Of a stretch of 36,915 bases of DNA, positions 25,683-29,864 are shown in pieces. Below the pieces are notes generated by a model that did no database searches, was not told where the DNA came from, and worked only from the letters and a program-made list of their open reading frames with translations. Source of the stretch: a virus; the UHGV virus genome UHGV-0071814. One strand, given 5' to 3'. The position numbers and the translations under genes were made by a program. How positions within the stretch are numbered: the stretch's first letter is position 1; the number at the start of each line of letters is the position of its first letter.

Positions 25683-26547
25683 GAACTTTCAGGTAGGTAT
25701 TATCGTTAAGCAGGAAATCAAATCCCTTTTTGTGCCAGACGGTTCCGCGTTGATGGTTTGGGCGTTCTTCGAACATCCATCGGCAATTTTCGCCTACGTA
25801 GCTCAAATAATTTCTCCAGTCCTGCATCGTGAACCCATGCCCGTCAAGCTGGCGGGTTATCACTCCGGCTTTGCGCCAGAACGTTCGGATCTGGTTTTTA
25901 CGCTTGTCATTCAGTGCGCGGATTCTTGGCGCTTCAGGAAGGATTTCGTGGTAAGCATCGACAACATCCTGACAGCTAACGGAAGGTTTTTTCTTGTCAG
26001 ACTTTTTGTCTGCTGTGGCACTCTCTAATACGTCAGTATTAGAGATATTATTTATATTATTGTTTATGGACAACCATTGGACAACCGTTGGACAATCTCC
26101 GCTGAGAGTCGCGCCATTACTGGTGTTTGCGTTGGACAACCGTTGGACAACCGTTGGACAATTTTTTGCCTGAAAATCGTCATATTTAACGATTGTAAAC
26201 AGGCTAAATTTCTTCCCCATCGAGCAAATATTAAGCATCCCTTTCGACTCAAAAGTCCGTAATAAGCTCCGAACTTTGTTGTCGGGGATGAATGTTTCTC
26301 TGACCAGCGACGGGCGTCCAGTTATCATCTGACCGCGATCAACAGTTATCGGACCGATATCCGTATTGACGACAGTAGATTCGTGATTAGCCTTGAGGAT
26401 TAAGTGAAGCCAAAGATGTACTGCCTGAGAGTCCTTATAGAGCCTGCTGTCCATAAACTGGCGGTGTATAGAGACATACCCCATACTGGATGCCTCCTGA
26501 TGTTGTACAGGGTTATGCCTGTAATCAGCTAACTTAACGACGCCCAT
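25657..26547 (-). CDS. Replication initiation protein (O-like; P22 gene 18-like); alternative start at ATG 26484
   Basis: Iteron array lies inside the gene; both candidate ATGs have AGGAG-type RBS. Confidence 0.7.
   Translation of the reverse strand: MGVVKLADYRHNPVQHQEASSMGYVSIHRQFMDSRLYKDSQAVHLWLHLILKANHESTVVNTDIGPITVDRGQMITGRPSLVRETFIPDNKVRSLLRTFESKGMLNICSMGKKFSLFTIVKYDDFQAKNCPTVVQRLSNANTSNGATLSGDCPTVVQWLSINNNINNISNTDVLESATADKKSDKKKPSVSCQDVVDAYHEILPEAPRIRALNDKRKNQIRTFWRKAGVITRQLDGHGFTMQDWRNYLSYVGENCRWMFEERPNHQRGTVWHKKGFDFLLNDNTYLKVREGEHDDR
26068..26163. repeat. Replication origin iterons: two clusters of three 11-bp-phased repeats (TTGGACAACCG/TTGGACAAT) flanked by AT-rich tracts
   Basis: GGACAACC/GGACAAT at 26068, 26079, 26090, 26134, 26145, 26156; AT-rich 26046-26066 and 26161-26215. 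Confidence 0.75.
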
Positions 26548-26695
26548 GTTTCACTCCTGCTTTGGCTAGTCTGTAAACACCAACAAGGCGCTCTGCGAAC
26601 GCCCTGTTATTTGCTGCGGCTACCACTGATCCCTCAGGTGAATCAGGGTGTCGAATCTCTTCTTTTTCCTGGTATTTCTTACGACGTTTTGTCAT
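26534..26695 (-). CDS. Small basic hypothetical protein between cII and O
   Basis: 53-aa ORF MTKRRKKYQEKEEIRHPDSPEG... with AGGAG 6 nt upstream; below ORF-track size cutoff. Confidence 0.3.
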   Translation of the reverse strand: MTKRRKKYQEKEEIRHPDSPEGSVVAAANNRAFAERLVGVYRLAKAGVKHGRR

Positions 26696-26729
26696 AATTA
26701 CTCCTGTGGATTGATCCAGTCTTTCTACA

Positions 26730-27008
26730 TCAGGCCTCGAAGAATTCGCCGTTCTTCGGGGCTTTTTCTTTTGTCAGCATTCTTGCTACTTTCTTAGCCA
26801 GTTTCGCCAACTCCTCGTCTTCAACACCCCATTCAAGAACAGCAAGAAGCATTCCCATTTTGGGGATGAAGCTGTCTTTCCATCGCGAAATTTGCGATTC
26901 ATTAATCCCTAACGCGTCGGCAACCTTTCGCTGACCACGTACAGCAATTCGATTCAGGATGTTGCTTGTAATTGCATTCGCTTTCTTGCGAGTACTTGTA
27001 AGTTGCAT
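26730..27008 (-). CDS. cII: cII-type transcriptional activator
   Basis: ...GINESQISRWKDSFIPKMGMLLAVLEWGV... matches lambda cII/P22 c1 core as recalled. Confidence 0.8.
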   Translation of the reverse strand: MQLTSTRKKANAITSNILNRIAVRGQRKVADALGINESQISRWKDSFIPKMGMLLAVLEWGVEDEELAKLAKKVARMLTKEKAPKNGEFFEA

Positions 27009-27066
27009 ATGTAAGTATTTCCTTAACTAATAAGAAGTTATGCGCATCAACTTATGCGCGTTGTAT

Positions 27067-27111
27067 TCCCGCATTTCGGCGGGAATGAGGACCATGACTG
27101 TTAAAGAGCGG
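27067..27111 (-). promoter_or_regulatory. nutR: boxA (CGCTCTTTAAC) followed by boxB hairpin (CCCGC-CGAAAT-GCGGG)
   Basis: Same boxA and boxB sequences occur at nutL (28740-28779) on the plus strand. Confidence 0.65.
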
Positions 27112-27116
27112 TGTTA

Positions 27117-27317
27117 CTATTTGTTTTTCTTGTTGCTTGGGAAAGGACGAACTTCCTCTCCAATCACACTGCCATCAGGCTTTACCGTAACCATAATGTT
27201 ACGGCCTGCCAGAATGGCCTTGCTGATAGCGCACTGGATTACACCAAAGTCACTGGCTGCTTTAGCCTGTCCATGGATTTTGGCGTAATCGGCAAGTGTC
27301 ATTCGAATCATATGCAC
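27117..27317 (-). CDS. cro: Cro repressor
   Basis: 66 aa; ...[37 protein letters not shown] resembles lambda Cro; divergent from cI. Confidence 0.8.
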
Positions 27318-27342
27318 TCTCCGTTATTAACCATGAACAAAG

Positions 27343-27406
27343 AATACTACAGGTATTCAAAGCAATCAATACTCAGGGTATTTTTAGTTTAAGTACCTTA
27401 GCTATT
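27343..27406. promoter_or_regulatory. OR operator region: three 15-bp sites with AATAC-N5-GTATT symmetry (27343-27357, 27368-27382, weaker 27392-27406), overlapping PR/PRM
   Basis: Palindromic half-sites read directly; centre spacing about 25 and 24 bp. Confidence 0.6.
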
Positions 27407-27417
27407 AGAATTAAGCT

Positions 27418-28134
27418 ATGGAAAATAAAAAATCACTGACGACAGAACAGCTCGAAGACGCTAAGCGGCTTAAGGCTTTGTATGAGTCAAAAAAGAAAGA
27501 ATTGGGAATAACCCAATACTCAATCGCTGATGAACTGGGTATCACCCAAGGAGCGGTAGGGCATTATCTTAATGGCAGAAACGCGCTAAACGTTGAGGTT
27601 GCATCTGGTTTTGCACGATTGTTGCAAGTCTCAATTGCTGATTTTAGCCAGTCAATTGCTGCCAAGGTTGCAGAACAGGCAGAAAGCCTTAAGAGCGATG
27701 CCAACGTAAGGTATGCAGGGGAATACAGAGCAGGAAAGAGGTATCCGGTGTTAAGCAGTATCCAGGCTGGCTCGTGGTGTGAAGCATGCGAACCATACAC
27801 CATTAAAGACATAGATGTTTGGCTTGAGTCTGACGCGCATATTCAAGGTAATGCGTTCTGGCTTAAAGTGGAAGGTGATTCAATGACGGCACCGGTTGGG
27901 TTAAGCATTCCAGAGGGAACATTCGTTCTTTTCGATACCGGAAGGGAGGCGATCAACGGCAGCTTGGTCATAGCAAAACTTTCTGACTCTAACGAAGCAA
28001 CATTCAAGAAGCTGATAATCGACGGCGGAAATAAATACCTCAAGGGACTTAATCCTGCATGGCCTCTCGTGCCAATCAATGGAAACTGCAAGATTATAGG
28101 CGTTGCAATTGAGACAAAACTAAGGCTGGTTTGA
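27418..28134 (+). CDS. cI: CI-type prophage repressor (HTH N-terminal domain + S24 LexA-like peptidase domain)
   Basis: 238 aa; LTTEQLEDAKRLKALYESKKKELG..., FWLKVEGDSMTAP...; homologous to lambda cI as recalled. Confidence 0.9.
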   Translation: MENKKSLTTEQLEDAKRLKALYESKKKELGITQYSIADELGITQGAVGHYLNGRNALNVEVASGFARLLQVSIADFSQSIAAKVAEQAESLKSDANVRYAGEYRAGKRYPVLSSIQAGSWCEACEPYTIKDIDVWLESDAHIQGNAFWLKVEGDSMTAPVGLSIPEGTFVLFDTGREAINGSLVIAKLSDSNEATFKKLIIDGGNKYLKGLNPAWPLVPINGNCKIIGVAIETKLRLV

Positions 28135-28151
28135 TCACGCAAGGGGCGATT

Positions 28152-28520
28152 ATGGTTGGAACCGCTATAGCAAGCTTTTTGGGGATGTTGGCAATCTCAA
28201 CAATTTACGGCTTAGCGCATGCTTTTATTGCGAAATCTCTATCAGAAAAAATAAGCCAGGCTTGGGCGCATAGATCTGCTCGTTTCATGATTCTGGTGAT
28301 CATAGCAATACAAGGGATATCTGCATTTATCCTCTATGGATCAAGCTTATACCTGTTGTATCAAGGCGCGACATTTACGCCTTACACCAGTGATTACGGA
28401 ACTCTATACGATGGTAGTGAAGACATCTCTATGGCTTGGATCGTCTTTGGTTTATCTATGGCCGTGTCTGTTGTAGCAGACATCATTAAGGTAATTCTCG
28501 TCTTAACCTTCGCTGACTAA
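28152..28520 (+). CDS. Small multi-pass membrane protein directly downstream of cI (rex-position cargo)
   Basis: ATG at 28152 with AAGGGG upstream; about 122 aa with three or four hydrophobic segments; ORF-track start 28131 is TTG. Confidence 0.55.
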   Translation: MVGTAIASFLGMLAISTIYGLAHAFIAKSLSEKISQAWAHRSARFMILVIIAIQGISAFILYGSSLYLLYQGATFTPYTSDYGTLYDGSEDISMAWIVFGLSMAVSVVADIIKVILVLTFAD

Positions 28521-28606
28521 CCTATAATCCCGGCAGCAATAGCTATCGGGATCCACTTCACATATCCCGCATAAAAAGCACTGAACAAGCAGACACCGAA
28601 AAAATA

Positions 28607-28691
28607 AATATCCTTTGTATTCATTTGCTTATCATTATTTCACCCAAAATAAATACCTTGGGTATTTACACAATAAAATACCTACAGTATT
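28607..28691. promoter_or_regulatory. OL operator region/PL: three sites with the same AATAC-N5-GTATT symmetry (28607-28621, 28652-28666, 28677-28691); candidate PL -35 TTTACA / -10 TATTCT
   Basis: Motifs identical in half-sites to OR sites. Confidence 0.55.
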
Positions 28692-28739
28692 CTTTAGCCA
28701 TCAGCAGGACGCTGGTAGCCAAACGGAACAGATTGGCAG

Positions 28740-28779
28740 GCTCTTTAACATTGATGGGATTGTCCCGCCGAAATGCGGG
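28740..28779 (+). promoter_or_regulatory. nutL: boxA GCTCTTTAA and boxB hairpin CCCGC-CGAAAT-GCGGG
   Basis: Exact counterpart of nutR elements; about 110 bp upstream of N. Confidence 0.65.
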
Positions 28780-28887
28780 AACCAAAGAGTAGTTGGCTTT
28801 GGGGTGACGTGAAGTGCAGCTGCACGACGGCAACCGGAAGATAAGCACCCGGCGCGTCACCGCCAAAGTCAATCATCGGAGGTCAAC

Positions 28888-29193
28888 ATGACAGTAGTCA
28901 TTACATATCTGGCTGATGATAACGCCAGAAATCGCCGCAGAGCACGCAGACAGGCTCAACGTGAACAGGCAATGCAAGAGCAGCGACTGGCACGAAAAAT
29001 TGCGCTAAAGCTCTCTGGTTGCGTCAGAGCAGATAAAGCAGCATCACTCGGAAGCCTTCGCTGCAAGAAGGCAGAAGAAGTCGAGCGTAAACAGAACCGT
29101 ATTTACTACCGCAAGCCACGCAGTGAAATGGGTGTGACTTGTTCAGGCCGCCAGAAGCAACGCGGAAAATCAATTCCAGCTTATTACGATTGA
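28888..29193 (+). CDS. N: Antitermination protein N
   Basis: Arg-rich motif NARNRRRARRQAQREQ near N-terminus; C-terminus ...YRKPRSEMGVTCSGRQKQRGKSIP like lambda N; AGGAGG RBS. Confidence 0.8.
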   Translation: MTVVITYLADDNARNRRRARRQAQREQAMQEQRLARKIALKLSGCVRADKAASLGSLRCKKAEEVERKQNRIYYRKPRSEMGVTCSGRQKQRGKSIPAYYD

Positions 29194-29200
29194 GGTGAGC

Positions 29201-29338
29201 CATGCTCAAGAAAGTCAAACGCCGACTTTACAAAGAAGGTAGATATTCATGCCATTTGCCAAAATGCGACACAGCAAAATGGAGTGTCGACGATTGGTGT
29301 AACTGGATAGATAGATACGGAACTTGGTGGGATAAATA
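29201..29338 (+). CDS. Small Cys-rich hypothetical protein
   Basis: 45-aa ORF MLKKVKRRLYKEGRYSCHLPKCDTAKWSVDDWCNW...; GAGGTGAG upstream; below ORF-track cutoff. Confidence 0.3.
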
Positions 29339-29393
29339 ACAGGTAACTTAAGCATATTTACTTTCGCAGCAAACCACTTATTTGAGGTGAGAT

Positions 29394-29864
29394 ATGACAA
29401 AATCATGGAGCGTACCTTTTCCTGAATCAGAAACTGAACATGATGGAATGCCTGTTTTCTGGAGATTCCAGGCGACAGTTGAAGAAGATGGAATCAAAAT
29501 ATTCGCACTTCAATATATAGCTTTTCATCAGACAGAGCATTATGCATGGTTGGTTCCTGCGCATTGGATTGTTAATTTTAAACCAACACCAAATCAGTGG
29601 TTACAGGAATGGAAACAAAGGAGAAATAGATATGCAATTAAGAAAGTAGCAAAAAATGCAGAAAGATCTTTTGCATTCCCGACGAAGAAACTTGCCATTG
29701 AAAGTTTATTGCGCCGGAAGAAATACCATTTAATGAGAATCAAACAAGATTTGGCTGTTGTATCAACTCTTGTTGATGGGATGAAGAATATTGATACATC
29801 AACACCAGATATTGAATATAACTTTGGACACAACCAAGAAACAGAAAACTGGGTGTTTTATTAG
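29394..29864 (+). CDS. Hypothetical protein, AT-rich moron downstream of N
   Basis: 156-aa ORF with low GC; followed by two hairpin terminators. Confidence 0.5.
   Translation: MTKSWSVPFPESETEHDGMPVFWRFQATVEEDGIKIFALQYIAFHQTEHYAWLVPAHWIVNFKPTPNQWLQEWKQRRNRYAIKKVAKNAERSFAFPTKKLAIESLLRRKKYHLMRIKQDLAVVSTLVDGMKNIDTSTPDIEYNFGHNQETENWVFY

Follow-up and report, generated by a model that had tools for sequence, protein, structure and literature searches.

The virus genome UHGV-0071814, a stretch of 36,915 nucleotides (nt) referred to below as the window, carries directly behind its cI repressor gene a small gene, hkaS, which is the second and last cistron behind cI and is a real, constrained gene. 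That hkaS is cargo placed as the last cistron of the repressor operon appears highly probable, and its transcription from the repressor-maintenance promoter PRM in lysogens is to be expected from this arrangement. The product, HkaS, is predicted to reside in the inner membrane and to span it with three transmembrane (TM) helices. The leading idea, which builds on analogy with other phage genes in the same position, is that hkaS could be a lysogen-expressed anti-phage gene acting at the inner membrane.

The open reading frame (ORF) itself has been known since 2001 through the GenBank annotation of coliphage HK620, and its position and likely co-transcription with cI are typical of lambdoid morons. 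New here are the evidence of selection, the predicted topology and fold, the finding that the family is a narrow orphan, its linkage to the C-terminal domain (CTD) of cI irrespective of immunity specificity, and a survey of the genomic slot behind cI.

hkaS and the organization of the immunity region

The hkaS coding sequence occupies positions 28152..28520 of the plus strand and comprises 122 amino acids (aa) plus a stop. Its product matches PHROG 6534 end to end (E 1.1e-78; residues 1-122 aligned to all 122 profile positions) and is 96.7% identical to the HK620 hkaS product (AAK28867; residues 1-120, tblastn), the range of identity to the copies in HK620, HK140, mEpX2 and the Stx2c phages being 96.7-100%. 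From cro through the 5' part of N, the window shares 98.8% identity with HK620 and 99.1% with phage HF4s. The HK620 and window copies are the same gene in the same position, between cI and tIMM/OL, and nothing of substance differs between them. The product is labelled 'unknown' in the HK620 GenBank record and hypothetical protein in RefSeq, and PHROG 6534 is a family of unassigned function.

The first-pass annotation of the window described a gene of about 122 aa with several hydrophobic segments, starting at 28131 and equipped with its own ribosome-binding site 18 bp past the cI stop. The length and the hydrophobic segments are borne out by the 122-aa product with its three predicted TM helices; the start is not. 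Position 28131 is a TTG in the same frame that overlaps the cI stop and would yield 129 aa, and the start conserved across lineages is the ATG at 28152, which in the Salmonella lineage directly follows an in-frame TAA. A ribosome-binding site is indeed present, in the form of the Shine-Dalgarno sequence AAGGGG at 28141..28146 (plus strand, recognized from the sequence), 5 nt ahead of the ATG; the gap between the cI stop and this ATG is 17 nt rather than 18. The Hafnia and Salmonella lineages have an AAGGA-type Shine-Dalgarno sequence at similar spacing despite a diverged spacer.

The upstream gene, cI (27418..28134, plus strand), encodes a 238-aa repressor of the HK620 immunity type, with HTH_3 and Peptidase_S24 domains (PHROG 4), that is 100% identical to the mEpX2 repressor. 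The two genes lie on the same strand, and in a promoter and terminator scan the gap between them is free of sites resembling either. The cI-hkaS transcript probably ends at a stem-loop at 28527..28552 (plus strand, identified by RNA folding), its likely terminator (tIMM), which begins 7 nt past the hkaS stop and has a folding energy of -13.7 kcal/mol (z -3.15), with a U-tract that is weak in the window allele. A stable hairpin is found directly 3' of the hkaS stop in all four lineages folded: the Hafnia hairpin is homologous to that of the window, and those of Salmonella and of locus L012 are unrelated both to the window hairpin and to each other, the one in L012 being a canonical intrinsic terminator.

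The immunity region of the window has the lambda arrangement, with lambda leftward transcription corresponding to the plus strand. Perfect matches to the strandless operator motif AATACN5GTATT number only four in the 36.9-kilobase (kb) window, namely OR1 (27343-27357), OR2 (27368-27382), OL2 (28652-28666) and OL1 (28677-28691), all in agreement with the HK620 annotation, and hkaS therefore lies between cI and OL. A PL-like promoter (28665-28693, plus strand), detected by the promoter scan and annotated in HK620, has its -35 element TTTACA at 28665-28670 and its -10 element TATTCT at 28688-28693. The first PL gene encodes an N-like antiterminator (28888..29193, plus strand; PHROG 271, E 2e-36; weak Pfam N_peptide match) and forms the far boundary of the cargo slot. 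The proposal that hkaS is read together with cI, from a position upstream of OL and PL, accordingly agrees with what we find, the intergenic gap, the hairpins and the operators, PL-like promoter and N-like gene 3' of hkaS included. Two operator-like sites with two mismatches inside hkaS (28307 and 28348) are attributable to chance, given that 17 such sites were found and 13.2 are expected.

At the other end of the operon, OR3 (27392-27406, strandless) is a match with two mismatches whose position agrees with the HK620 annotation. A putative PRM -10 hexamer, TAGAAT (27406..27411, plus strand, read from the sequence), ends 6 nt before the cI ATG, and OR2 adjoins a weak -35, which suggests a lambda-like, cI-activated PRM from which a leaderless cI-hkaS mRNA would be made; the HK620 record has no annotated PRM.

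In the interval between hkaS and OL2, the site AATATCCTTTGTATT (28607..28621, strandless), which has one mismatch to the operator consensus, is probably the true OL3. The E. coli and Salmonella versions of the site do not differ, and no other part of the interval is as well conserved among the E. coli, Hafnia and Salmonella lineages as the block containing it. The OL3 of the HK620 record, equivalent to 28629-28645 of the window, is not conserved, and AF335538 may have both this feature and the 'tIMM' feature that overlaps it in the wrong place.

No conserved second ORF was found between cI and OL, in keeping with the first-pass statement that hkaS has no obvious partner. The sole neighbouring ORF encodes a hydrophobic 35-aa product on the minus strand (28517..28624), convergent with hkaS and overlapping its stop by 4 nt, and is listed as a coding sequence in the HF4s annotation. 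It runs for only 10-12 codons before a stop in the Salmonella and Hafnia lineages, its frame is broken in 23 of 80 IMG/VR contigs, and its variants are 46 nonsynonymous and 5 synonymous. This ORF is most likely not a gene, and we reject it as a partner or toxin candidate; its conserved 5' end is the operator-like site described above.

On the far side of OR, the minus strand carries a cro-like gene (27117..27317) and a cII-like gene (26730..27008), and the remainder of the window is a P22-like (Lederbergvirus-type) genome. An Rfam scan of 26500-29500 found no RNA family.

Constraint and predicted membrane topology of HkaS

The window hkaS and the Hafnia allele differ by 0.72 substitutions per synonymous site (dS) and 0.099 per nonsynonymous site (dN), that is, by a dN/dS of 0.14. 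The comparison with the Salmonella alleles shows synonymous saturation in cI as well as in hkaS (proportion of synonymous differences, pS, about 0.8), so that the two genes must have been paired for a long time; nonsynonymous divergence at this distance is 0.27 for hkaS and 0.08 for cI, a roughly 3.5 times faster rate in hkaS. Full-length alleles, even those with as little as 54% identity, all encode exactly 122 aa; they show no insertions or deletions and share more than 40 invariant residues. Intact copies are present in 80 of 80 IMG/VR contigs, and cI directly precedes hkaS in each of the 79 contigs where this could be judged; these loci were the best full-length matches, a choice that somewhat favours intactness. 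Among the cluster members, too, intact alleles form the overwhelming majority.

Broken alleles exist, with frameshifts or internal deletions in HF4s, P0004, P0005, P0007-P0009 and P0013, and within the E. coli lineage the ratio of nonsynonymous to synonymous change is about 0.3 (22 synonymous and 21 nonsynonymous variants). Both observations would be expected if hkaS were a translated but functionally decaying passenger whose only reason for persisting is its location between cI and the operators. The low dN/dS at intermediate distance, the predominance of intact alleles and the retention of length, topology and 40-odd invariant residues in the face of synonymous saturation speak against decay, which we consider extremely improbable.

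The HF4s lesion, apparent when the window sequence is aligned with HF4s and HK620, is the loss of one A from the A6 run in codons 32-34 of hkaS (28246..28251, plus strand). The same deletion would give the out-of-frame sequence with which the database fragment P0013 terminates. The A6-run deletion could reflect a recurrent slippage site or a sequencing error. HF4s (L002; bioRxiv 10.1101/2021.06.09.447823) is a temperate phage, and its frameshifted copy argues that hkaS is dispensable.

A TM topology prediction, which the first-pass annotation had proposed as a check, yields the same result by Kyte-Doolittle hydropathy and by AlphaFold2: three long hydrophobic helices, at residues 2-29, 41-74 and 89-121. 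The AlphaFold2 model (predicted local distance difference test, pLDDT, 91.6; predicted template modelling score, pTM, 0.78) also places a short helix (31-38) in loop 1 and a small beta-hairpin (about 78-86) in loop 2. On the plus strand of the window, TM1 is encoded by 28155-28232, the 17-residue cytoplasmic loop by 28233-28283, TM2 by 28284-28361, the periplasmic loop with the beta-hairpin by 28362-28430 and TM3 by 28431-28511. The assignment of the sides is a prediction from the positive-inside rule: the net charge of the first loop is +3 to +5 and that of the second about -1 to -4 in every lineage, and HkaS is thus predicted to have its N-terminus outside, loop 1 in the cytoplasm, loop 2 in the periplasm and its C-terminus inside. 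Only about 19 residues are predicted to face the cytoplasm.

Conservation is unevenly spread over this structure. The share of invariant positions is lowest in TM1 (31%) and highest in the periplasmic loop (52%) and TM3 (48%), and the invariant motifs are YxLYxG-x3-Y-x5-YG-x2-Y-x-G and DIxKxIxVLTFAD. The periplasmic hairpin loop is acidic and rich in Tyr and Gly. Within the helices, Gln54 of TM2 and Asp110 and Lys113 of TM3 are invariant, as is a GxxxA motif in TM3; judging from the residue numbering, the three polar residues probably lie at similar depth, in the cytoplasmic leaflet.

Distribution of hkaS and the cargo slot behind cI

HkaS is a narrow orphan family confined to prophages of Enterobacterales. 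Clustering of 5.8 billion proteins at 90% identity yields 11 clusters of the family, and it has a single representative at 50% identity among 1.84 billion; a hidden Markov model search of these 1.84 billion representatives returned the family itself, one fragment and one 5,949-aa repeat protein. The last is rejected as a homolog, being a chance match inflated by nine nearly identical 27-residue repeats of about 7 bits each. The named sources of HkaS are E. coli, Hafnia and Salmonella, with one further copy in a Buttiauxella genome. Among complete E. coli genomes, 146 of 5,426 (about 2.7%) carry the gene, in varied hosts and at scattered chromosomal coordinates.

Among phages, hkaS is present in 16 records, which are exactly the 16 with a cI at least 99% identical to that of the window. 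The carriers include HK620 (Lederbergvirus), HK630, HK140, mEpX2, vB_EcoP phages and two Stx2c-converting phages, and their genomes differ widely (38 kb in HK620, 47 kb in HK630, 61-65 kb in the Stx2c-converting phages). The occurrence of hkaS across such unlike phages indicates that it travels with the immunity module and not with the virion type.

Every hkaS copy examined starts 17-20 nt past cI, ahead of N. The Buttiauxella copy (L046, 2495-3543) follows a cI whose N-terminal domain (NTD) is unrelated to that of the window repressor (21% identity) and whose CTD is 88% identical to it, which ties hkaS to the 3' half of the cI lineage, independent of immunity specificity. Enterobacter phage BHUENT3 (L016, 1441-2886) belongs to the same cI CTD lineage (85% identity) and has different cargo, a 127-aa Zn-ribbon protein and a 109-aa coiled-coil/TM protein, in place of hkaS. 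The slot is empty in Serratia phage OS31, whose cI is 71% identical to that of the window, and likewise behind the related cI genes of mEp213 and SEN22. These empty slots, like the HF4s frameshift, speak indirectly for an accessory status of hkaS. Given the other cargo of BHUENT3 and the empty slot of OS31, adjacency explains the cI-hkaS linkage, and a functional interaction is not required. Both L046 and L016 also illustrate domain swapping in repressor genes, with S24 CTDs that are 85-88% identical to that of the window repressor and unrelated DNA-binding NTDs (21-33%).

The strict linkage to one cI CTD lineage, maintained in L046 even with a swapped DNA-binding domain, would suit a role of HkaS as a switch modulator, which would tune spontaneous induction or the establishment of lysogeny, for instance via a membrane protease such as FtsH. 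There are precedents for switch effects of genes in this position: 434 Hex is reported to stabilise lysogens and lambda RexAB to aid the lysogenic-to-lytic transition (PMC3564112; bioRxiv 10.1101/2021.04.19.439022). As noted, however, adjacency suffices to account for the linkage; furthermore, the few cytoplasmic residues of HkaS are poorly suited to act on cI or RecA, and HF4s still forms lysogens with its frameshifted hkaS (bioRxiv 10.1101/2021.06.09.447823). A switch function is therefore very unlikely in our assessment.

The interval between cI and N is a common moron site (bioRxiv 10.1101/787010; PMC3564112), and PRM transcripts often carry accessory exclusion genes, such as rexAB, hex and the exclusion kinase of phage 933W, which shares its transcript with cI (PMC3564112). 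The cI and bstA genes of the P22-like prophage BTP1 form one operon with one start site (bioRxiv 10.1101/787010). The slot behind relatives of the window cI (40-76% identity) was surveyed in 80 loci from species-representative genomes. An ATG-initiated ORF of at least 45 aa starts no more than 120 nt past cI in 26 of the 80, and the cargo is diverse; the interval behind the cI lineage of the window is a cargo hotspot. Among ten cargo proteins that were scanned, there are one RexA, three candidate defence proteins according to PADLOC (PDC-S42, PDC-M63A/DUF6932 and the HipA-like kinase PDC-M03A), one Tlde1-domain protein and five unknown proteins. The Tlde1 family is linked with bacterial antagonism rather than with phage defence.

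The first-pass annotation had placed hkaS in the rex position of lambda, and this holds literally. In a Siccibacter colletis prophage (L022, 3324-4613), rexA and then a rexB nearly identical to that of lambda occupy exactly this slot; the cI ahead of them shares 76% identity with the window repressor, so that the rex cassette has evidently moved between immunity types. The slot carries hex in phages 434 and Sf101 (cI 52% and 51% identical to that of the window, respectively), and hex-like ORFs are found in 2 of the 80 surveyed loci.

One same-slot product, from Ewingella sp. (L091, 2991-3359), has 122 aa and three hydrophobic segments, with two CxxC pairs in its central loop. In view of these CxxC pairs and a score of 5 bits, it is rejected as a distant relative of HkaS and stands as another small membrane protein among the cargo found behind relatives of this cI.

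Possible functions of HkaS

We tentatively propose that HkaS provides stand-alone superinfection exclusion, by analogy with known prophage proteins, through a block of genome entry directed against heteroimmune phages. Under this proposal, hkaS would be dispensable cargo (a 'moron') in the repressor-maintenance operon of the HK620-type immunity region; HkaS would accompany cI wherever the latter is expressed, hence in lysogens, and would need no partner at the inner membrane. There it would hinder the entry of genomes by binding either to an entry factor of the inner membrane or to the ejection or tape-measure proteins as they arrive, with the contact made through the conserved periplasmic hairpin and TM3, a mode that could be likened to that of P22 SieA, HK97 gp15 and T4 Imm.

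The gene is a candidate for exclusion because the slot carries phage-exclusion systems elsewhere; by analogy, this position would raise the prior for an anti-phage role but proves nothing. An entry block is favoured over abortive infection because HkaS lacks a sensor partner and has so little predicted cytoplasmic surface, because its best-conserved surface is predicted to be periplasmic, and because SieA sets a precedent (PMC10461980).

P22 SieA is a prophage-expressed inner-membrane protein with three predicted TM helices that needs no partner and blocks DNA injection (PMC10461980); HkaS is predicted to share the membrane location and the number of helices. SieA differs in length, with 162-164 aa against the 122 aa of HkaS, and homology is rejected: in the comparison, which covered SieA of the P22 type only, the BLASTP E value is 29, and HkaS does not match PHROG 7745, the family that P22 SieA matches at E 9e-109. 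The proteins of the window include no SieA homolog and no significant SieB match. T4 Imm is a small phage membrane protein that blocks genome entry. HK97 gp15 is a lysogen-expressed moron and a small membrane protein with the same effect (cited in PMC10461980). These two proteins differ from HkaS in the number of TM segments and in genomic location, and Pfam and PHROG searches detected no relationship of HkaS to either.

434 Hex is the second PRM cistron behind the closest well-studied relative of the window cI (52% identity) and confers heterologous exclusion of P22 (PMC3564112). In contrast to HkaS, it has 134 aa as re-annotated, a start that overlaps the cI stop and a signal-peptide-like N-terminus, and is not a three-pass protein; homology is rejected (BLASTP E 4.0; Hex belongs to PHROG 2651 and HkaS to PHROG 6534). 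In lambda imm434 (L014, 2409-2813), the hydrophobic N-terminus of Hex, beginning MIRIAALLSILLTTSANS, resembles a signal peptide, which fits poorly with the published cytoplasmic block of RecA-stimulated repressor cleavage. A GenBank note on 434 hex states that a wrong start codon was inferred in the paper.

Several considerations weigh against an entry block by HkaS. Entry blockers usually track the type of virion that they exclude, whereas hkaS tracks the immunity module; the TM-embedded Gln54, Asp110 and Lys113 would be no less in place in an ion-conducting or ion-coupled element than in a passive blocker; and most of the characterised cargo of the slot acts by abortive infection rather than by blocking entry. 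Furthermore, searches of HkaS against Pfam, NCBIfam and PADLOC give nothing above threshold, fold searches against viral models and solved structures retrieve only generic helical bundles, and the literature searched contains no paper that names hkaS together with HK620 and yielded no functional study.

A broader formulation, which we regard as doubtful, is that HkaS would be the first member of a new class of membrane defence that consists of a single gene and needs no sensor, either as a plug or hijacker of the host inner-membrane route of DNA entry or as a self-gated ion path. The Tyr/Gly hairpin and the Gln-Asp-Lys cluster would then act independently of the virion type of the carrier prophage; the entry route would be one common to many heteroimmune phages, and the ion path would be triggered directly by the incoming injection machinery.

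The polar residues within the TM helices, together with the GxxxA motif of TM3, also count in favour of the possibility that HkaS is a sensor-less abortive-infection effector of the RexB/SieB kind, in which an oligomer or gated ion path would depolarise the membrane in response to a disturbance of the envelope by a superinfecting phage. The cargo of the slot points in the same direction, given the rexAB genes behind the Siccibacter cI, the HipA-like PDC-M03A and the 933W exclusion kinase co-transcribed with cI (PMC3564112). The resemblance of HkaS to lambda RexB is one of setting: RexB is a small multi-pass inner-membrane protein of the PRM operon encoded between cI and OL, and HkaS is predicted to be another.

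RexB has four TM helices, whereas three are predicted for HkaS, and RexB needs RexA for exclusion, whereas hkaS has no RexA-like partner or conserved second ORF and is preceded directly by cI. Homology to RexB is rejected, as there is no match to PF15968 at E up to 1 or to PADLOC models at E up to 10 and BLASTP gives E 3.9, with lambda RexB itself scoring 305 bits against the Pfam model as a control. In addition, HkaS offers almost no cytoplasmic surface for sensing an infection, and an ungated channel would be toxic when expressed constitutively. We consider abortive infection by HkaS unlikely.

BstA is a roughly 300-aa cytoplasmic abortive-infection protein. The bstA gene parallels hkaS in arrangement, being the one accessory gene that shares a transcript with cI in its P22-like prophage (bioRxiv 10.1101/787010), but its product is neither membrane-bound nor a homolog of HkaS.

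The faster nonsynonymous divergence of hkaS relative to cI is what would be expected of a protein that tracks a variable partner. This feature and the scatter of hkaS over varied E. coli hosts and chromosomal positions would agree with a lysogenic-conversion function unrelated to phages, with HkaS as an orphan immunity protein against a pore-forming bacteriocin or as a modulator of a host transporter or sensor that aids fitness. Immunity proteins against E1-type colicins and microcins are roughly 100-aa, three-pass proteins of the inner membrane, a class that HkaS fits in size, topology and lack of a partner, and the Tlde1-domain protein among the slot cargo is a further point in favour. However, HkaS matches no colicin or microcin immunity family in Pfam or NCBIfam at E up to 1-10, and no bacteriocin gene was found at the hkaS locus. 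A role of this kind seems improbable to us.

Few prophage genes are permanently expressed in lysogens. Those co-transcribed with the repressor are among them, and several, namely rexAB, hex, nun, stk and bstA, have founded exclusion paradigms. If HkaS alone excludes phages, it would be among the smallest defence determinants known and would provide a compact handle on the poorly understood step of genome entry at the inner membrane. If it has no phage phenotype, hkaS would be a candidate lysogenic-conversion factor, concerned, for example, with bacteriocin immunity or envelope physiology. Either way, the interval behind the cI lineage of the window is a compact and easily mined cargo hotspot.

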